Of a stretch of DNA of 43,741 nt, positions 1-43,678 are shown in pieces. The stretch lies in sequence record NC_019724.1; one strand, written 5' to 3'. The position numbers and the translations under genes are program-made. Origin of the DNA: Escherichia phage HK578. Below the pieces are notes generated by a model. The model searched no databases. It was not told where the DNA came from and saw only the letters and a list, made by a program, of their open reading frames with translations. Positions within the stretch are counted from its first letter, which is position 1. Every line of letters starts with the position of its first letter.

Positions 1-573
1 ATGCACAAAAGGGCTTATATCATGGCAGAAATCAAAGTTAAGGGCCGTCGCGCCAAACTGGACGGACGAGTGGCAGTCACCCCGCGCCGTAAACCAGGCG
101 AGCAAACCGAGCATACCAATCTCGGACCTGAAATCGAGTACGGAAAGCGCCGTAAAGGCGGCAAATGTGGACGCCCTACTGACTACCGATCCGTTTACTG
201 CGACCAGCTTCGCCGCTATTTTGCCGATGCCGACGCCTGGCAGGTCAACTACTCCGATAAAGGCGCTGCGCAAGTAATCCCCCGCAACAAAATGCCAACC
301 TTCGGTCGATTTGCCGCGGAAATCGGCGTGGGCGTAGCTTGCCTGTATCGCTGGGCGCGTGCGCATGAGGAGTTCGCCGAGGCGATGGCGGACGCTATGG
401 AGTTGCAGAAAACCTTCCTGATGGAAGCTGGCGGCGTAACCATCGCTGCGGGCTTCGCCACATTCCTGCTTAAAGCAAACCACGGCGTCCGCGACGATGT
501 GCCGCTGGATGATGACGAAGATGATAACGGCGACGTCGTTGTCGAACCTACCGGCAAAGGCCAGGGCGAATAA
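1..573 (+). CDS. terminase small subunit
   Basis: 190-aa ORF with HTH-like segment TFGRFAAEIGVGVACLYRWARAHEEF and acidic C-terminus; stop overlaps TerL start (TAATG). ORF begins at window edge; in-frame ATG at 22 has a better SD (AAAGGG) and may be the true start. Confidence 0.65.
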   Translation: MHKRAYIMAEIKVKGRRAKLDGRVAVTPRRKPGEQTEHTNLGPEIEYGKRRKGGKCGRPTDYRSVYCDQLRRYFADADAWQVNYSDKGAAQVIPRNKMPTFGRFAAEIGVGVACLYRWARAHEEFAEAMADAMELQKTFLMEAGGVTIAAGFATFLLKANHGVRDDVPLDDDEDDNGDVVVEPTGKGQGE

Positions 574-1958
574 TGCGTAACTATGCGGCGGAACACCGCG
601 CACTGGAACGCGCGATCGCAAAGCGCAACCGACCACCACGTCCGACACGCGTTGCGCAGGCGGTGCGTCTTTACCAGCCTGATTGCCTACCGCACCAGGT
701 CGAACTACTGCGCGACACAAAGACTAAAATACTTGGCCTGTGTTCCGGCTTCGGTGGTGGAAAGTCGTGGGTCGCTGCGCGTAAGGTCATCCAGCTTTTA
801 ACCCTGAACCCGGGTCATGATGGCATCGTTACAGAACCGACTATTCCCCTCCTGGTTAAAATCATGTATCCAGAATTGGAGAAGGCTTTCGACGAGGCTG
901 GCTTCCGGTGGAAGTTCAACAAGCAGGACAAGATCTATAGCGTTCTGGTGAAAGGCAAATGGACCCGCGTGATCTGTGAATCAATGGAGAACTATACCCG
1001 TCTGATCGGGGTCAACGCCGCGTGGATTGTTGCCGACGAGTTCGACACCACGAAGCAAGACGTCGCAATGGCGGCTTATCACAAATTGCTCGGTCGTCTG
1101 CGTGCGGGCGTGGTCCGTCAGTTTGTCATCGTATCCACGCCGGAAGGCTTCCAGGCAATGTATCAAATTTTCGAGGTGGAGAAGGATAGCCAGAAACGTT
1201 TGATCCGGGCGAAGACCACCGACAACCACCATTTACCGGCAGACTTTATCGACACGCTGCGCAGTCAGTACCCGGCTAACCTGATCGACGCGTACCTGAA
1301 CGGCCTATTTGTTAACCTTACGTCGGGCGCGGTGTACAAGATGTTTAATCGCGAGGAGAACGCCAGCACCGAAGAAGTACAACCGGAAGACACGCTGATT
1401 ATCGGTATGGACTTTAACGTCACGAAAATGGCGGCGGTCGTGTATGTAAGACGGCAGCGTACCACCGAGAACAAGGAGTTCCGCGACGAGATTCACGCCG
1501 TGGATGAATTCGTGGACCTGTTTGATACCCCGGCTATGATTGAAGCGATCGAGGAGCGCTACCCCGATCATTGCGCTGCCGGTAGGGTTGTAGTGTACCC
1601 TGATAGCAGCGGCAAATCCCGCAAGACGGTCAACGCGTCGTCGTCCGATATCGCACAACTGGAAGACGCGGGCTTCGAGGTGGAGTATGACAGCGTTAAC
1701 CCACCTGTGAAAGACCGATTGATCGCGATGAATACGATGATGTGCAACTCGAAGGGCGTGCGCCAGTATTTTGTCAACCTGGATAAATGCCCTACACTAG
1801 CGAAATGTCTGGAACAGCAGGTGTATGACCTGAAGAAAGGCGAGCCGGATAAAACTGCCGGTGTGGACCACATGAACGACGCCGCGGGCTATCCTGTTGC
1901 GCACTTATTCCCTGTGATTCGTCCGATCGCCGTTGTTCCAACTGTAGACTTCTACTAA
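573..1958 (+). CDS. terminase large subunit
   Basis: 461 aa; Walker A-like GLCSGFGGGKS, Walker B-like AAWIVADEFD, C-terminal nuclease acidic residues (IIGMDFN, VDHMNDAAG); follows TerS. Confidence 0.88.
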   Translation: MRNYAAEHRALERAIAKRNRPPRPTRVAQAVRLYQPDCLPHQVELLRDTKTKILGLCSGFGGGKSWVAARKVIQLLTLNPGHDGIVTEPTIPLLVKIMYPELEKAFDEAGFRWKFNKQDKIYSVLVKGKWTRVICESMENYTRLIGVNAAWIVADEFDTTKQDVAMAAYHKLLGRLRAGVVRQFVIVSTPEGFQAMYQIFEVEKDSQKRLIRAKTTDNHHLPADFIDTLRSQYPANLIDAYLNGLFVNLTSGAVYKMFNREENASTEEVQPEDTLIIGMDFNVTKMAAVVYVRRQRTTENKEFRDEIHAVDEFVDLFDTPAMIEAIEERYPDHCAAGRVVVYPDSSGKSRKTVNASSSDIAQLEDAGFEVEYDSVNPPVKDRLIAMNTMMCNSKGVRQYFVNLDKCPTLAKCLEQQVYDLKKGEPDKTAGVDHMNDAAGYPVAHLFPVIRPIAVVPTVDFY

Positions 1959-3490: not shown

Positions 3491-4577
3491 TCAATATATG
3501 GCGGATCGAATGATTCGCCGTCACATCTTCACCCAGCGCCTGAGCAATGACCAGGCGCGAAGGGTGCTGTCCATGTGGGAGAAGTTCCGGCCTACATTAC
3601 TGGGGGAGCTGACCGAGTTGCTTGATGGCAAATCGTCAATGAATAACCGGGCACTTTCCACCCTGCTAACGCAAATCGACAAGACCGTAAAAACGGAACT
3701 GCGCACCGAGTTTAAGGCGTTGGCTGAAAGCCTTCAGGAGTTTGCAGACACCGAGGCCGATTATCTCGCCGACACATTGACGGCAGCGGTCCAGCCGGTG
3801 GTCGCCGTACCCGCGGTCGAGGTAGTTGGCGTAGTGACCGGTGCGCAGATCGCAGCGACTGCGATGAAAAACCCGTTCCTGGGAAATACCATGATGCAAT
3901 GGCCCGACTCACTTTCTGAGTGGACCAGGACGCAGATCGGTAATCAGGTGCGGGCGGGATTCATCCAGGGCAAGCCAACGATGGAAATTATCGCGGACGT
4001 GAGGCGCGCGCTAGGCGGTCGTAGTGCGCAAGCCATCTCAAGCGTTGTTAAGTCCGCAGTCAACCACTATGCGGCGACCGCCCGCGAACTAATGGTAAAA
4101 GCAAATGACGATATTCTCGAAGGTCGCCAATGGTTATCTACATTGGACACGCATACTTCTCCCATGTGCCAGCTACGCGATCGCCTGTTTTATCCGGTTG
4201 ATGTTACCCCCGACACCAAAGGAAAGCGCGGCGGGAAAGTGGTGGCTGGGTCACAATATGGCGCTGGTCCGGGCAAGCTGCATTATTGTTGCCGGTCTAC
4301 GGAGACGTGGAAGGTTAAAGGCATGGAAGATTGGCCCAGTGGTAAGCGTCCGGCACTGAAGGCTGACGCGGGTCGATTGCTGAGTGAGCAGGTCGACGCG
4401 CAGACCGATTTCTTCTCATGGGTGCAGCGCCAGCCGCGCCATATCCTGGAAGAATTATACGGAGTGCAACGCGCAGACCAGATTATGCGAGGCGTGAAAG
4501 TGCCGAAGATGTTCACTGATACCGGCGAACTAATGACTATTGCACAGCTTAAAAACCGGGGGTTATGGCGTGATTAA
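3474..4577 (+). CDS. head morphogenesis / minor capsid protein
   Basis: 367 aa, overlaps portal 3' end; position after portal as in Mu F / SPP1 gp7-like genes; family assignment from position only. Confidence 0.55.
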   Translation: MAKTINQYMADRMIRRHIFTQRLSNDQARRVLSMWEKFRPTLLGELTELLDGKSSMNNRALSTLLTQIDKTVKTELRTEFKALAESLQEFADTEADYLADTLTAAVQPVVAVPAVEVVGVVTGAQIAATAMKNPFLGNTMMQWPDSLSEWTRTQIGNQVRAGFIQGKPTMEIIADVRRALGGRSAQAISSVVKSAVNHYAATARELMVKANDDILEGRQWLSTLDTHTSPMCQLRDRLFYPVDVTPDTKGKRGGKVVAGSQYGAGPGKLHYCCRSTETWKVKGMEDWPSGKRPALKADAGRLLSEQVDAQTDFFSWVQRQPRHILEELYGVQRADQIMRGVKVPKMFTDTGELMTIAQLKNRGLWRD

Positions 4578-4899
4578 ATATGCAGCTATTGGACTGATTA
4601 TCGGTCTGGTGGTAGGATTCTGGCTAGGTGACTCCTATCGCACTGGCGTAGTGGCGGAGGCGGCGCAAGAAGCGCAAGCCCAAGCCCAACGGCAGCAAAC
4701 TAAAGTTGTTGAGCGCTCCGTGCAGGCCGAACAGGCACGCGACGTGGAATACCGGACTATCACGAAAGAGGTTGTTAAATATGTTACGCGCCCTAACCGC
4801 CCTGATTGTAGTTTTGATGCTGAGCGCGTGCGGATCAAGCAACGTGCCGTTGATGCCGCTAACGGAGTCGGCACTGCGACCGCCGTGCAAGTTCGATAA
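4570..4899 (+). CDS. putative i-spanin (Rz-like)
   Basis: GTG start after GGGGG SD; N-terminal TM helix IKYAAIGLIIGLVVGFWLG followed by charged helical periplasmic domain (AEAAQEAQAQAQRQQ...); overlapped by +1-frame lipoprotein ORF. Longer TTG-start version begins at 4540. Confidence 0.5.
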   Translation: MIKYAAIGLIIGLVVGFWLGDSYRTGVVAEAAQEAQAQAQRQQTKVVERSVQAEQARDVEYRTITKEVVKYVTRPNRPDCSFDAERVRIKQRAVDAANGVGTATAVQVR

Positions 4900-5011
4900 C
4901 CCGTCTGCGGACCCCGACGAAGATTTGATGATTGACGTGAAAAATATGGAATGCGGGGCTAAGCTAAGGGCGCAGGTGCTGGAGTTGCAGCAAATAATTA
5001 AGGGGCCGTAA
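4781..5011 (+). CDS. putative o-spanin (Rz1-like lipoprotein)
   Basis: ATG 4781 with SD AAGAGG; signal peptide MLRALTALIVVLMLSAC with lipobox LSAC; mature part short, Pro-rich, with Cys; in +1 frame overlapping 3' end of 4570..4899. Confidence 0.55.
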   Translation: MLRALTALIVVLMLSACGSSNVPLMPLTESALRPPCKFDNPSADPDEDLMIDVKNMECGAKLRAQVLELQQIIKGP

Positions 5012-11115: not shown

Positions 11116-11381
11116 AGGACAGGCGGGACGTCCCGTTTTATCCCGTTCTGTCCCGCACCTCTAAAAACTGCATATTTACCCACTCCTATTGCATAAATTA
11201 AAAGCGGGACAGGGGTGCTGTCCCGATCTGTCCCACCCCCAAAATGTGAATAGTTATGCAGTTTTCGCGCATAAAACAAACGGGACAAAAAGCGGGACAG
11301 AATTGGGCGGGACAAAGCGGGACGTCCCGCCGCCCCCATCAGTGCTGCCGCGTGTTTCAGCCGATCGGGACAGGCGGGACA
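11116..11381. repeat. GGGACA / TGTCCC iteron array (copy A region)
   Basis: about 13 copies of GGGACA or its complement in ~270 bp, including palindromes GGGACGTCCC (11125-11134, 11318-11327) and pairs spaced 9-12 nt. Confidence 0.7.
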
Positions 11382-11435
11382 AAGCCCAGTCTTTCAGACT
11401 AGACGGGGGTCATTGGCCCCCCTCGTCTGAGACTG
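11246..11435 (+). repeat. ~190-bp dispersed repeat, copy A
   Basis: aligns by eye at roughly 85 percent identity to 38348..38539: shared blocks tgaatagttatgcagtttt, cgggacaaaaagcgggacaga, gggcgggacaaagcgggac, gggacaggcgggacaaa and the terminal hairpin. Confidence 0.75.
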
Positions 11436-11503
11436 AATAAGGTTTGTTTTAAATTCGCTGATACAATGTCAACCGGCAACTGCATAAAAAGGGGGACTGC
11501 ATA

Positions 11504-32833: not shown

Positions 32834-34261
32834 TTAATTTTTTAAATCCTCGTCAGTAGCTTCAGACCACGCGGGGCGCGGGTCGTCGATAGGTGCTAAC
32901 ACCGGTTTAGCAGGTGCGCGCGTGATTTTATCACACAGCTTCGCCCACACTTTCGGTTTTTCGTCCTTCAGCACCTTCTCGGCATCTGTTGGGCTGAGCA
33001 ATGTTTCTTTGTACATCACATCGCGCTTGATCCGGGCCTTCGTGAATATTTCAATCACTTCGCTCTCGTCCGCCCACTTCCGGATCCCTTCCTTGCCTGC
33101 AACCATCTTGAGGCCCAGCGATTCGCCATCCCCAGCCATTACCGCTTTGAATACCGCGGACTCGATAGCTTTGATGTGCTGGCGCATTGCGTCCAGACCT
33201 TCATAAGCCTTGCGCAGTTCCGCCGCGCTCATAGCACCGGGGGCCGCTTCTTTCTTGCCCCGTTTAGCACGTCGTGCCGCCTTGCGGGCTTCGCGGGCCA
33301 TATTGAGGCCGTGGTTGGCGCATTCTTCCGCTGTCGCAATACTCTCGTCGTCGCCCAGGTCTTCGTCGGTTGCCGTTGGTGGTGTCATCGTATCGATTGC
33401 AGCCTTCGCCCTGGCGCTACACTGGTCCGCAAATCTGCACCACTGGCACGCATCAACGCTGGGGCGGAAGTCGGCACGGGTAAGCCCCTTCTTGCCGCGG
33501 GTGTACGCATCGAGAGCGGCGATAGCACGCTTGGACGCAAACTTCGCGAATATCTCCAGCGCTTCTACCGAAATATCCCACTCCGACGCCCCGCCGCAAT
33601 ACGGCTGGAAGATAACCAGGCGCACGGTCGTAATGTCGTACATAGTTTGCAGCTTGCGTAGCAGGCCCAGCGCGTACAACATAAGCTGTTTGTTTTCTTT
33701 TGCCTCGACCTTATGCCGCCCGGTCTTCAGGTCGCCAACAATCAGCATGTACGTGCCGTCGGTCTTTTTCATTACCATGGCCATATCGGCAGTACCGAAC
33801 GTTTTAATCCTGTTGCCGTCGCTCTCGAATCCTGAATGAAGGACGCGGGTCAGATCGGCGCGCATCTCAAGCTGAACAAACTCCGCCACTTCGAGGAGCG
33901 GTCGCCAGTGGTCGATGTACGCGTCGCACTGTTTCACCATGTCGTCGTTGACCAGTACGCCGCCTTTCGGTGCTTTCGGGTGGGCCTTTACTGGCCCCTT
34001 GCCTTCGTTCTCGACGTAGCACCCTTTATACGTCTTCGCGGTTATCAGCTTCTCCCCGGCGATAATGCGGTTTAGCACCACTTCAGATACGGTGTGCATA
34101 CTCGTACCGTTAATCGCCGCTTGCCCGGATTCGTTAGGGATATCTTTTTCCACCACCAGGGCGGCGGGGCAACCCATCCATTTTTTAGCACCGGACGGGC
34201 CGAGTAATGAGTGTTCCGTGTTGCTACCGGATTGCGTTTTACGTTTTGGTTTAATCGCCAT
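32834..34261 (-). CDS. RecB/Cas4-like exonuclease (DUF2800-type PD-(D/E)xK nuclease)
   Basis: 475 aa; nuclease motifs GTADMAMV, IVGDLKTG, QLMLYALGL and C-terminal Cys cluster CQWCRFADQC (Fe-S-type); adjacent to SSB-like and PolA genes. Confidence 0.7.
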   Translation of the reverse strand: MAIKPKRKTQSGSNTEHSLLGPSGAKKWMGCPAALVVEKDIPNESGQAAINGTSMHTVSEVVLNRIIAGEKLITAKTYKGCYVENEGKGPVKAHPKAPKGGVLVNDDMVKQCDAYIDHWRPLLEVAEFVQLEMRADLTRVLHSGFESDGNRIKTFGTADMAMVMKKTDGTYMLIVGDLKTGRHKVEAKENKQLMLYALGLLRKLQTMYDITTVRLVIFQPYCGGASEWDISVEALEIFAKFASKRAIAALDAYTRGKKGLTRADFRPSVDACQWCRFADQCSARAKAAIDTMTPPTATDEDLGDDESIATAEECANHGLNMAREARKAARRAKRGKKEAAPGAMSAAELRKAYEGLDAMRQHIKAIESAVFKAVMAGDGESLGLKMVAGKEGIRKWADESEVIEIFTKARIKRDVMYKETLLSPTDAEKVLKDEKPKVWAKLCDKITRAPAKPVLAPIDDPRPAWSEATDEDLKN

Positions 34262-38275: not shown

Positions 38276-38347
38276 ATTTTGCGCGCATTGGTTGCCATTT
38301 TGAGTGTTTTTAGCTGGTCGCATTGGTTGCCGTGTAGTGTGAATATA

Positions 38348-38539
38348 GTGAATAGTTATGCAGTTTTATTGCATAAAGCAAGCGGGACAAAAAGCGGGAC
38401 AGACCAGGGGCGGGACAAAGCGGGACAGCACCCCCTGTCCCGCCCGGCTGGCGCGGCTCTCAGAGGAGCGGGACAGGCGGGACAAACCCCAGTCTTTCAG
38501 ACTAGACGGGGGGTCAATGGCCCCCCTCGTCTGAGACTG
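38348..38539 (+). repeat. ~190-bp dispersed repeat, copy B (GGGACA iterons + hairpin)
   Basis: seven GGGACA/TGTCCC copies at 38384-38484 and hairpin 38490-38539; homologous to 11246..11435. Confidence 0.75.
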
Positions 38540-38698
38540 CATAAAATCCCGGATTGCATAATACACGGCAGCATGTTGCGGATTGCGGTCGTCGCTGAAC
38601 TAGGCAACCAATGCGAGTTGCAGAATGGTGGGTGAAAAATGCAGTTTGCAGTCACAGCAGATAGCGATCAACTTTTTCATGCGCGTGATTAATATTGG

Positions 38699-40627: not shown

Positions 40628-40918
40628 ATGGATAAGCTAAACGAGTGGCTATTCGCCCTGGCATGTCTGGCGGGTGGCTTCGTAGGCGCACGCCTTCATG
40701 GTGAGGCTACGAAAGGGCCGCTAAACTTCGTTTTGTATGTCGTAGTTGGCTTCCTGTGTGCCATATTTGGCGCACCGGCTATTGCCGAGTGGGCTGGTTT
40801 GTCGGGTGAGCGCACTGTCGCCGGTTTGGGCTTCGTAACCGCGATTTTCTGGATGCCAATCGCCGACCGGATCAGGGAGACTATTGCGTCGTTCCGACTT
40901 CCGGGGGGTGTAAAATGA
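40628..40918 (+). CDS. putative holin
   Basis: 96 aa with ~3 predicted TM segments and charged C-terminus, two genes upstream of the lysozyme gene. Confidence 0.55.
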   Translation: MDKLNEWLFALACLAGGFVGARLHGEATKGPLNFVLYVVVGFLCAIFGAPAIAEWAGLSGERTVAGLGFVTAIFWMPIADRIRETIASFRLPGGVK

Positions 40919-41160
40919 TTATCACCGTCCTGTTGTTTGTTATCATAGGGGCTTCGTCCCTGTTTAACGTGTATGCGCCGTCCGTCCAGGATGGCATCTT
41001 GGGCCGGGTGCTGTATCTGTTAACGGCAATGGTCTGTATTATCGGATTGCTGCAAACAGGAGACGTATCAGATACCACCTGGACCGCGTTAATCTGGCTG
41101 TTTGCATTGCGCACCCTGCGTAATGCTGTTTTGAATGGGGTAAAACATGCGATTCAGTGA
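40915..41160 (+). CDS. small membrane protein (second holin or antiholin-like)
   Basis: 81 aa, ~3 hydrophobic segments, SD GGGGGGTG, overlaps both neighbours. Confidence 0.5.
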   Translation: MIITVLLFVIIGASSLFNVYAPSVQDGILGRVLYLLTAMVCIIGLLQTGDVSDTTWTALIWLFALRTLRNAVLNGVKHAIQ

Positions 41161-41638
41161 TAACGGTCTACGATTTACGGCAGCATGGGAGACTTTCAGC
41201 CCAGTGCCGTATTTCGCGACTAAGAAAGAGCAGGCCCGCGGCCTGTACACCTGGGGTTATGGTCATACTGGCACTAATCCGCCTCGAAGCATTACCCGCG
41301 AGGAAGCGCTGGAACTGCTCAAGCGCGATGTGGCGTATGCCGAGGACTGGGTGAACAAATACGCGCATAAGAGCATTAACCAGGCGCAATTCGACGCGCT
41401 GGTGGACCTGGTAATCAATGCCGGTCCGGGGCCGATCGTACCGGATGACGTCGCGAATGATTTCGATGATGCGGTGCGACTGGGAGACTGGGCGAAGGTC
41501 CGTGCTACGCTGCCGCAGTTCCGAAAACAAGGCGGTGAAGTGCTTAAGGGTCTGGTGCGCCGTGCAATCGGCAGACAGGCGCTATTCGATGGTAAGCAGT
41601 GGGACGTTGCCGAGCGAATCGGTCGTAACGCTGCATAA
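41147..41638 (+). CDS. endolysin (GH24 lysozyme)
   Basis: 163 aa; catalytic-region pattern WETFSPVPYF...YTWGYGHTG and INQAQFDALVDLVINAG resembling lambda R / T4 e-type lysozymes. Confidence 0.85.
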   Translation: MRFSDNGLRFTAAWETFSPVPYFATKKEQARGLYTWGYGHTGTNPPRSITREEALELLKRDVAYAEDWVNKYAHKSINQAQFDALVDLVINAGPGPIVPDDVANDFDDAVRLGDWAKVRATLPQFRKQGGEVLKGLVRRAIGRQALFDGKQWDVAERIGRNAA

Positions 41639-41654
41639 GACGAGGTGACACGAT

Positions 41655-42056
41655 ATGTTAGATTCGATCTTGCGACGTAAAGAACGCATTATCAAGACAC
41701 TGCCCGCAGTGCAGAACCCAGAAGCGCGCCGCATCCTGGCAGGGGATATGAATGTATCAGGCGTCTTCGACAAGGCCGTGCCTGAAGGGACGCCGGTGGC
41801 GAGCGCTACCGTTACCATCACGCCAGCTACCGCCGCAGTTGGTGAGACCGCCGCCGCGACTGTTGCCATCCTGCCATCCGGCGCGACCAACAAGGCCGGA
41901 TCGTGGGTGTCGGCGAACCCTAACCGCGCCTCAATCAATCCGACTACCGGCGAAATCACCGCGAAAGCTGCGGGTAACGTCCGCATCGTTTGGGTGGCGT
42001 CCGACGGTAGCGGGGTGCAGGCTGACGCAGGCTTCACAGTAACGGCAGCAGAGTAA
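41655..42056 (+). CDS. Ig-like (Big_2-type) domain protein
   Basis: 133 aa; C-terminal ~80 aa Thr/Ala/Val-rich with pattern typical of bacterial Ig-like group 2 domains; followed by terminator. Confidence 0.5.
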   Translation: MLDSILRRKERIIKTLPAVQNPEARRILAGDMNVSGVFDKAVPEGTPVASATVTITPATAAVGETAAATVAILPSGATNKAGSWVSANPNRASINPTTGEITAKAAGNVRIVWVASDGSGVQADAGFTVTAAE

Positions 42057-42062
42057 ACCAAC

Positions 42063-42088
42063 AAGCCCGGTTAATTCCGGGCTTTTTA
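42063..42088 (+). terminator. intrinsic terminator
   Basis: AAGCCCGG-ttaatt-CCGGGCTT followed by TTTT. Confidence 0.7.
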
Positions 42089-42151
42089 TTGCTTGACTTG
42101 CAACCAACATAGACGCCATACTGCGACCAATCAACGAGAGGAGTAATCAAG

Positions 42152-42232
42152 ATGGCACGTAAAGATATTTGGGTATTAGCGATCTGGACCACCGCGGCTT
42201 TTATCGGCATGGTTATTTGCGAATTGATATAG
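42152..42232 (+). CDS. hydrophobic micro-ORF (26 aa)
   Basis: MARKDIWVLAIWTTAAFIGMVICELI; SD GAGAGGAG 8 nt upstream; preceded by TTGACT and two motif copies; not in ORF track (below length cutoff). Confidence 0.35.
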   Translation: MARKDIWVLAIWTTAAFIGMVICELI

Positions 42233-42293: not shown

Positions 42294-43436
42294 ATGCACC
42301 CGCAAACTAAAATTACCGATGAGCAATTGATCGCAGAAATTCAGGCAGGGACTACGGTTAAAGAGATTGCGAAGAAATACGGGATTGCCCTGCGCAATGT
42401 CTATATGCGGAAAGCCCGCCTGTCGAAAAAAGGAATTGGGCACGGCAACGACGCCGTAATCCGCAAGCGCGTTGCCGATGGATTCGGCGTTAAGCGCGTA
42501 TCGGCCCTGGTGCGCGGCAATGGCGAAGAGGTCATGTCGTGGGTCATCACTGAGCAGGATAAGGAGCGCCAACTCGAAGCTATGCGCGCTGTTGTCGAAG
42601 GTATGAACAGCGAAATCACACCGGCAGCGCCAGTAAAGGCCCCGCCAGTCCCGATCCAGGCGCTCGACTTGCTCAACCTGTACACTGTGTCCGACTTCCA
42701 CTTGGGCATGTTGGCATGGGGTGAGGAGACTGGCGAAGACTGGGATATGGCGATTGCTGAAGACCTGTTCTACCGCTGGTTTGTCGAAGCCTTCGCCCGC
42801 GCACCGGACGCAGGCACTGCCGTTATCAATATCCTCGGCGATATGGCCCACTTTGACAGCCTTGATGCCGTCACACCAGCAAGCGGTCACGTACTGGACG
42901 CCGACACGCGATACCAGAAGTTGGTCCGCTATATGATACGCATGGTGCGCAACGTCGTAGAACTGGCGCTGCAAAAACACCACAAAGTCAAACTGCTAAT
43001 CGTCCAGGGTAATCATGACGAATCGGGTATGATTTGGCTTGCTGAGATGTTCAATACCTTGTATGAGAACGAGCCGCGCGTTGATGTGGACACGTCCCCG
43101 GACGTCTACAAAATGGTGCAGCACGGTAAGACTACGCTATTCTTCCACCACGGGCACAAAGCGCGATTCGATGTTATCGAGCAGGTTATGATCGCTAAAT
43201 TTAGACAGGCATTCGGGTCGAGCGAATACAGCTACGCGCACGTAGGCCATTTGCACCACCAGAAGATTGTCGAGTCTCGCAACATGATTGTTGAACAGCA
43301 CAGGACGCTCGCAGCGAAAGACGCCTACGCCAGCCGCGGCGGCTGGATGAGCGGTCGCAGTGCCAACGTCATTACCTACAGCGCCAACTACGGCGAAGTA
43401 GCGCGCTTAACCATTAGCCCGGAAATGTTGAAATGA
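42294..43436 (+). CDS. HTH domain fused to calcineurin-like metallophosphoesterase
   Basis: 380 aa; N-terminal HTH (TVKEIAKKYGIALRNVYMR); phosphoesterase motifs SDFHLG, GDMAHFD, LIVQGNHDE, FFHHGH, VGHLHH. Confidence 0.6.
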   Translation: MHPQTKITDEQLIAEIQAGTTVKEIAKKYGIALRNVYMRKARLSKKGIGHGNDAVIRKRVADGFGVKRVSALVRGNGEEVMSWVITEQDKERQLEAMRAVVEGMNSEITPAAPVKAPPVPIQALDLLNLYTVSDFHLGMLAWGEETGEDWDMAIAEDLFYRWFVEAFARAPDAGTAVINILGDMAHFDSLDAVTPASGHVLDADTRYQKLVRYMIRMVRNVVELALQKHHKVKLLIVQGNHDESGMIWLAEMFNTLYENEPRVDVDTSPDVYKMVQHGKTTLFFHHGHKARFDVIEQVMIAKFRQAFGSSEYSYAHVGHLHHQKIVESRNMIVEQHRTLAAKDAYASRGGWMSGRSANVITYSANYGEVARLTISPEMLK

Positions 43437-43645
43437 TTAGACAAGTATTCATGAGCACGCAGGCGGCCCGCCTGAAAGAGCTACGCAAACAACTCGAAGG
43501 CTTGCGACGATTCGAACGAACGGCAGCGGCAATCGGCATGTCTATTAGCGAGCGGATCGAGATACTATCGCAAATACGCTACACAGAAGGCGCGATAAGC
43601 GAAGTAGAAAGCATGTTAACCCGATACTACGGTCGCGCCGTTTAG
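43433..43645 (+). CDS. hypothetical small protein
   Basis: 70 aa, start overlaps upstream stop (ATGA), followed by terminator. Confidence 0.45.
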   Translation: MIRQVFMSTQAARLKELRKQLEGLRRFERTAAAIGMSISERIEILSQIRYTEGAISEVESMLTRYYGRAV

Positions 43646-43652
43646 CCCTCCT

Positions 43653-43678
43653 AGCCCGCCGATTTGGTGGGCTTTTTT
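43653..43678 (+). terminator. intrinsic terminator
   Basis: AGCCCGCC-gattt-GGTGGGCT followed by TTTTTT. Confidence 0.7.

Follow-up and report, generated by a model that had tools for sequence, protein, structure and literature searches.

An HTH-metallophosphoesterase family of Dhillonvirus and T1-like phages as a candidate Mre11-like nuclease

Introduction

During infection by phage T4, the gp46/gp47 pair and the den nucleases break down DNA, and the resulting nucleotides go to phage DNA synthesis. In phage T1, 'gene 2.5' is a host-DNA-degradation locus. T4 gp46/gp47 also provides a precedent for an enzyme of the phosphoesterase fold that attacks host DNA (T4 database record). T1 and TLS break down the host genome and reuse its nucleotides; which gene product does so was not identified (PMC11447400). 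T1 mutants impaired in this breakdown of the host chromosome were reported to show better transduction (Roberts and Drexler 1981, cited in PMC11447400). Furthermore, Gp48 of mycobacteriophage A10ZJ24 has phosphodiesterase activity and damages or disrupts host DNA (PMC12287305).

Here we describe the analysis of a gene of Escherichia phage HK578 (NC_019724.1; the window is the whole stretch of 43,741 nucleotides analysed) which encodes a helix-turn-helix (HTH) domain fused to a calcineurin-like metallophosphoesterase. Its homolog in phage TLS, gp66, has been given only as 'proof-reading exonuclease' (PMC11447400).

Results

Family and distribution

Deposited phage proteins share 99-99.7% identity with the encoded protein, which matches PHROG 704 ('DNA repair exonuclease', a label assigned by computational annotation) with an E value of 2.3e-161, residues 5-380 aligning with profile positions 2-390 of 390. 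By tblastn, 2,060 phage records contain homologs, and in ~150 Dhillonvirus records the copy is near-identical. Those from Jerseyvirus and Kagunavirus are 60-80% identical to the query, T1 ORF16 and TLS gp66 are 45% and 48% identical over their full length, and further homologs occur in Webervirus, T1-like, Vibrio, Campylobacter and other phages. An exhaustive search yielded relatives in 4,662 clusters at 50% identity, mostly of 370-420 aa among the matches listed. Scanning bacterial genomes added 102 confirmed copies from Alpha-, Beta- and Gammaproteobacteria, of which 80 loci were kept.

In public records, members are named 'phosphoesterase', 'DNA repair exonuclease', 'HTH-type regulator/nuclease SbcD', 'HTH luxR-type domain-containing protein' or 'DNA polymerase small subunit'. 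Going by these names, the HTH-phosphoesterase fusion has therefore already been annotated. As far as sequence records tell, both the sequence and the domain fusion are known and PHROG 704 is widely annotated; the find itself is ordinary, since both are already in the databases. A full-text literature search found no experimental study of any member of the PHROG 704 family, and the family is unmentioned in the STAND-sensor, BASEL and PUA-Cal-HAD papers. The exonuclease of a Vibrio coevolution paper was excluded as a family member, being RNase T-like. Phage PTXU04 of the CRISPRi-ART work is said there to bear limited relation to known proteins.

Genomic locus

The window represents a complete Dhillonvirus-type E. 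coli siphophage genome, opened at terS. It is collinear with phage SSL-2009a (aligned blocks 80-97% identical, mostly 92-97%), and the region around the phosphoesterase gene is 95% identical to phage Psq-1, whose record has the same gene order there. The small and large terminase subunits are encoded by ORFs 1..573 and 573..1958. Therefore, the phosphoesterase gene is located between the lysis cassette and terS on the circular map, in the order holins, endolysin, Ig-domain ORF, phosphoesterase gene, terS. The initial annotation had placed the gene just upstream of the terminase genes on the premise of a circularly permuted genome. The locus comprises the following elements:

42063..42084, + strand: terminator-like hairpin (8-bp stem, 6 GC pairs, then a T run), closing the upstream lysis/Ig-domain unit
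42093..42122, + strand: candidate sigma-70-like promoter of the phosphoesterase unit (TTGACT-18 nt-CATACT, 9/12 matches)
42152..42232, + strand: hydrophobic 26-aa ORF, possibly coding, between the promoter candidate and the phosphoesterase gene (MARKDIWVLAIWTTAAFIGMVICELI)
42294..43436, + strand: HTH-metallophosphoesterase gene, PHROG 704 (ORF of 380 aa, at exactly the coordinates of the initial annotation)
43433..43645, + strand: accessory helical ORF of 70 aa (phrog_20931, E 5e-48)
43653..43673, + strand: terminator-like hairpin (9-bp stem, 6 GC pairs, then TTTTTT), closing the unit before terS

Judged from these elements, the phosphoesterase gene appears to form a small transcription unit by itself. 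The upstream hairpin starts 7 nt past the stop codon of ORF 41655..42056; the downstream one lies 8 nt past a stop codon, and phage WFI has annotated terminators at the matching place. The number of terminator-like sites in the region (4 found versus 2.6 expected) is not above chance, and the two hairpins were taken as terminator-like because each is located directly 3' of a stop codon. The promoter candidate is weak, as the scan returned two sigma-70-like sites versus 1.8 by chance.

The 26-aa ORF had no match in a search of PHROG profiles; at the equivalent place, Jerseyvirus encodes a small Imm-like membrane protein. The 70-aa ORF overlaps the phosphoesterase stop codon via ATGA and is translationally coupled to the phosphoesterase gene. 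As a conserved partner it was rejected: homologs occur in 73 phage records only, all of them Dhillonvirus-type, and it is missing in the collinear genome of SSL-2009a. A 76-aa ORF in the same position in Jerseyvirus is unrelated by sequence.

ORF 41655..42056 upstream codes for 133 aa with an Ig-like domain (phrog_215, 'structural protein with Ig domain'; there are also major-tail-protein Ig-domain matches). It directly follows the endolysin gene, distant from the structural genes, with the terminator-like hairpin 3' of it. According to the SSL-2009a annotation, Rz-like spanin genes come after the head-morphogenesis gene (window ~4570-5011), ~7 kb on the circular map from the holin/endolysin genes (window 40628-41638). 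On this annotation, the lysis cassette therefore appears split.

Domain architecture and conserved motifs

The initial annotation had described a two-part protein, with an HTH formed by the N-terminal 40 residues and a C-terminal phosphoesterase of ~230 residues. We found three parts:

42315..42431, + strand: HTH of the LuxR/GerE/sigma-70-region-4 type (residues ~8-46)
42471..42611, + strand: conserved beta-hairpin (64-88) and helix (90-106), W83 invariant
42660..43433, + strand: calcineurin-like metallophosphoesterase core (residues ~123-380, ~258 residues)
42693-42701, + strand: motif I, SD134-F-H136-LG
42837-42851, + strand: motif II, G182-D183-MA-H186
43008-43019, + strand: motif III, G239-N240-H241-D242
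43146-43157, + strand: motif IV, H285-H286-G-H288
43245-43256, + strand: motif V, G318-H319-L-H321

Thus, HTH and phosphoesterase stood up to scrutiny; the core had been taken as too short and the middle module (64-106) overlooked. The five motifs already named are all readable in the translation and invariant or nearly so in the family: across 56 cluster representatives, each only 33-48% identical to the query, D134, H136, G182, D183, N240, H241, H286, G318 and H321 are invariant, and H186, D188, D242, H285, H288 and H319 are at least 90% conserved. The protein therewith contains all five motifs of the superfamily (DxH, GDxx(D/H), GNH(D/E), H, GHxH). The query scores below the Pfam thresholds for Metallophos and Metallophos_2 (22.5 bits versus a cut-off of 27, and 20.3 versus 21.5); a relative, P0127, passes (25.1 bits). 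The PHROG 704 family is a divergent branch of the calcineurin-like metallophosphoesterase superfamily. Two very strongly conserved loops specific to the family, VTPxSGHxLDxDxR (193-206) and EQHxTLAAxDAYAxRGG (334-350), have low model confidence and can be regarded as family signatures from the alignment.

An AlphaFold2 model built on 124 homologs reached a pLDDT of 84.2 and a pTM of 0.75, compared to a pLDDT of 44 from the single sequence. The HTH is modelled as three helices (9-17, 22-29, 33-45; pLDDT 87-91), followed by a disordered linker (48-55), a long beta-hairpin (64-73/79-88) and a helix (90-106). From residue 123 to the C-terminus, the core follows a beta-alpha-beta-alpha-beta order, and all motifs are found at C-terminal strand ends, in keeping with the fold. 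A PDB profile search with the hairpin-helix module (64-106) gave no sequence match among solved structures.

The HTH is weak in the query alone (GerE, E 0.017, under the Pfam cut-off) and solid at the family level, where the best member matches reach E values of 1.5e-9 for Sigma70_r4_2 and 2.4e-8 for GerE. Several members each match Sigma70_r4_2, HTH_1, GerE, HTH_28 and HTH_8, and the N-terminal family profile matches the HTH domains of RhlR, DesR, GerE, FixJ and NarL in the PDB. Members with longer, non-aligning N-termini keep HTH domains, and one has two. The profile matches together with the three modelled helices confirm the N-terminal HTH that had been proposed from the query alone.

Placement in the phosphoesterase superfamily

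Archaeal Mre11 was the top hit in a Foldseek search against the PDB (E 4e-8), with almost equal fold scores for MJ0936, YfcE, Rv0805 and LpxH. By fold and profile comparisons, the catalytic domain is nearest to the SbcD/Mre11 and PolD-DP1 nucleases, and the nuclease-domain fold of Mre11/SbcD is the closest among the phosphoesterases. Searching PDB sequences with the catalytic profile returned T. maritima Mre11 and the P. putida nuclease MPE, both as weak matches (E ~1-2), as well as a protoporphyrinogen oxidase that apparently matched by chance. A phmmer match to designed armadillo-repeat proteins in the PDB (E 2.6e-6) was discarded as spurious, because its score sums many sub-threshold repeat matches with no single stretch passing.

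Among phage proteins, the family profile aligns with T4 gp47 over 183 columns including motifs I-V (E 8e-4), with Bxb1 gp47 over 87 columns covering motifs III-V only (E 0.014), and with lambda NinI at an E value of 0.15. The alignment with T. maritima Mre11 pairs DWHLG with DxHLG and GDLLH with GDxxH, and motif II has this Mre11-type GDxxH form (G182-D183-M-A-H186). The motifs can be aligned with their counterparts in T4 gp47 and T. maritima Mre11, so the outcome that would have refuted the initial assignment, motif residues off the metal-binding positions, did not arise. The choice between Mre11/SbcD and NinI-type phosphatases had been left to profile and structure searches, which place the domain far from the NinI type; neither a GDxxDRG motif II nor close similarity to lambda phosphatase was found in the query. 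On the basis of the Foldseek and profile comparisons and the motif alignment, the catalytic domain thus resembles Mre11/SbcD-type nucleases and not NinI-type protein phosphatases.

Only 182-192 of the 319-386 residues of SbcD/Mre11 chains align to the query. No Rad50/SbcC-type ATPase is encoded among window ORFs of at least 350 aa or in the collinear SSL-2009a annotation, and none recurs in 78 prophage neighbourhoods.

Gene neighbourhoods in phages and prophages

Adjacency to terS was observed in Dhillonvirus and an HK97-like phage. It is not general, and the terminase linkage is lost in Jerseyvirus, T1, TLS and Webervirus. In Jerseyvirus, the gene has the opposite orientation and is placed among the tail genes, with an Imm-like protein and an antirepressor encoded next to it. 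T1 and TLS carry it immediately before holin and endolysin; in Webervirus it is followed by a polynucleotide kinase, a dNMP kinase and then the lysis genes. A lambdoid phage has the gene filling the stretch from the nin region to the lysis genes (Q-to-S interval), and another temperate phage carries it between the tail-fibre genes and the integrase. On the lambdoid phage contigs (L008/L009, 9565-9927), the third gene downstream from the phosphoesterase homolog, located beyond the lysozyme, codes for an Acb2/Tad1-hairpin-family protein; the Acb2/Tad1-hairpin family is an anti-CBASS/anti-Thoeris sponge family.

For the prophage context, ORFs were called in 78 loci and all neighbours were clustered. 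None of them is universal among these loci. Lysis enzymes recur upstream and terminase or portal downstream, and the families recurring immediately downstream are deoxynucleotide-pool enzymes:

dNMP kinase (PF21448, phrog_139): 14 loci
HD dNMP phosphatase (phrog_318): 13 loci
second HD hydrolase (phrog_990): 7 loci
dATP/dGTP diphosphohydrolase (PF18909): 4 loci
nucleoside 2-deoxyribosyltransferase-like protein (phrog_355): 4 loci

These enzymes are concentrated at positions +1 to +4 (30 of 42 occurrences; 297 ORFs there versus 1,302 elsewhere in the flanks), and at least one is found within 8 genes in 25 loci from 20 genera, counts that come from crude ORF calling on loci of which many are related Rhizobiales prophages, and from a lysis-to-terminase interval that is a general cargo site.

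Other elements of the genome

An intergenic element of ~200 bp occurs twice in the window (11149-11450 and 38332-38545; 83% identity) and also in two copies in SSL-2009a. In each element, CGGGACA occurs 7-8 times, for the most part as direct repeats, and a long GC-rich hairpin (CCCAGTCTTTCAGACTAGACGGGGGGTCATTGGCCCCCCTCGTCTGAGACTG) comes after them. The whole genome has 20 copies of CGGGACA versus 6.1 expected, with 15 copies in the two arrays. One array separates the tail chaperone gene from the tape-measure gene, and the other comes shortly after the primase-helicase gene. The element looks like an iteron or operator array and therefore may be a replication origin or a regulator-binding site. 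We considered the arrays as targets of the HTH, but there are no copies near the phosphoesterase gene or terS, so no link between the two can be claimed.

On the - strand, ORF 32834-34261 encodes a 475-aa PD-(D/E)XK/DUF2800 exonuclease (phrog_69) adjoining a Gp2.5-like ssDNA-binding/annealing protein. These two likely represent the phage's recombination module, separate from the phosphoesterase. Given this adjacency, the phage would already have a recombination exonuclease.

Discussion

Since the active site is invariant, catalysis appears to be the selected function, and the ever-present HTH argues for action on or at DNA. By fold, nucleases come closest, and the genes recurring next to it encode enzymes of deoxynucleotide metabolism. 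The best-supported reading, in our view, is an Mre11-like nuclease that is anchored to DNA, needs no partner and serves to supply nucleotides or to process DNA. The protein would be a two-metal (probably Mn2+) phosphodiesterase from the Mre11/SbcD-like branch of the calcineurin-like superfamily. Its N-terminal LuxR-type HTH would hold it on DNA, which would most likely make it a stand-alone DNA nuclease. Its most likely job would be to break the host chromosome or free DNA ends into 5'-mononucleotides, which would then feed phage DNA synthesis. We infer the DNA substrate, the mononucleotide products and the role in host-DNA breakdown and nucleotide supply from the features described above. That the protein acts as a DNase seems somewhat probable; the full explanation, a DNA-anchored Mre11-like nuclease for DNA breakdown and nucleotide supply, is tentative and has rather less than an even chance, and the specific role in host-DNA breakdown and nucleotide supply is if anything more doubtful. 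The initial annotation had suggested a DNA-targeted phosphoesterase for end processing, packaging or nucleotide signalling. A DNA-targeted, Mre11-like enzyme is supported by our results, while a packaging or signalling role gained no support.

A nuclease could alternatively trim ends, hairpins or branched replication intermediates for concatemer formation or packaging, which we consider rather unlikely. This would suit the SbcD/Mre11-like fold, the gene order directly upstream of terS in Dhillonvirus and the HK97-like phage, and the location between lysis genes and terminase or portal in many prophages. But terminase linkage is not retained in Jerseyvirus, T1, TLS or Webervirus, the protein has neither a Rad50/SbcC partner nor a capping domain, and the phage already possesses the PD-(D/E)XK exonuclease beside the Gp2.5-like annealing protein. 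Unlikely to a further degree is a hydrolase of small nucleotides, namely dNTPs, dNDPs, cyclic or linear signalling nucleotides or 2',3'-cyclic phosphate ends, which would reshape the nucleotide pool or destroy defence signals. The nucleotide-pool enzymes next to the gene, the polynucleotide kinase of Webervirus, the Acb2/Tad1-like sponge near the gene in a prophage locus and the high scores of MJ0936, YfcE, Rv0805 and LpxH would all agree with such an activity. However, it leaves the universally kept DNA-binding HTH unexplained, both motif II, in its GDxxH form, and the best matches at the sequence level favour nucleases of the Mre11 type, and no known anti-CBASS or anti-Pycsar enzyme was matched in any of our searches.

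The LuxR/sigma-70 region 4 type of the HTH could also indicate a protein that mainly regulates transcription, such as that of late or lysis genes, by binding promoters, with the phosphoesterase as a sensor or auxiliary activity. The gene is indeed often found at an early/late boundary, before the lysis genes in T1, TLS and the lambdoid phage and before terS here. Yet every catalytic residue is strictly conserved, which argues for catalysis as the selected function; the sole repeated motif array found, CGGGACA, is located elsewhere and no operator-like repeat lies near the gene; and T1-like phages have a separate annotated transcriptional regulator. We therefore judge regulation as the primary function to be improbable. 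A NinI/lambda-phosphatase-type Ser/Thr protein phosphatase, already disfavoured by the superfamily placement, is very improbable, even though lambda NinI comes from the same superfamily and from a phage, where its gene directly precedes Q and the lysis genes.

Within the preferred reading of a DNA-anchored nuclease, a more specific proposal would make the family (T1 ORF16, TLS gp66, PHROG 704) the host-chromosome-destroying enzyme of T1-like and related small siphophages. The HTH and hairpin module would target the nuclease to the DNA of the host and not to that of the phage, and the freed dNMPs would pass to the co-located nucleotide kinases. In this full form, the proposal is rather unlikely. 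If true, the enzyme would also control the frequency of transduction and the release of nucleotide danger signals sensed by defences. The family is a reasonable and easily tested candidate for the T1/TLS host-chromosome-degrading enzyme, an old question in T1 biology. More than 2,000 of the phages sequenced so far keep the gene, among them many candidates for therapy (Dhillonvirus, Jerseyvirus, Kagunavirus, Webervirus, T1-like), and so do prophages across Proteobacteria. A positive answer would have consequences for the nucleotide supply of phages, for generalized transduction by therapy phages and for the way defences sense DNA breakdown products.

Comparison with known systems

SbcD/Mre11 proteins have a C-terminal capping domain, whereas the query ends with the core at residue 380, and sequence similarity between them is marginal (E ~1 versus PDB). 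Both SbcD/Mre11 and T4 gp47 work with a Rad50/SbcC/gp46 partner; the query has an N-terminal HTH and hairpin module instead. Lacking the capping domain and a Rad50/SbcC-like ATPase, the enzyme is therefore not an orthodox Mre11/SbcD. The archaeal PolD small subunit DP1 is a 3'-5' proofreading exonuclease. Its N-terminal domains differ from those of the query, and the phage encodes a family A DNA polymerase and no PolD large subunit. The cluster A mycobacteriophage phosphoesterases (A10ZJ24 Gp48, Bxb1 gp47) are, like the query, five-motif phosphoesterases of phages, but they are ~255 aa long, have no HTH and belong to a different branch of the superfamily, without full-domain homology. Lambda NinI shares with the family that it is a phage calcineurin-like phosphoesterase encoded near lysis genes. 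Within PHROG 704 (T1 ORF16, TLS gp66 and the Jersey/SETP3-type proteins), the architecture of HTH, hairpin and phosphoesterase is common to all and to the query, with no substantive difference.
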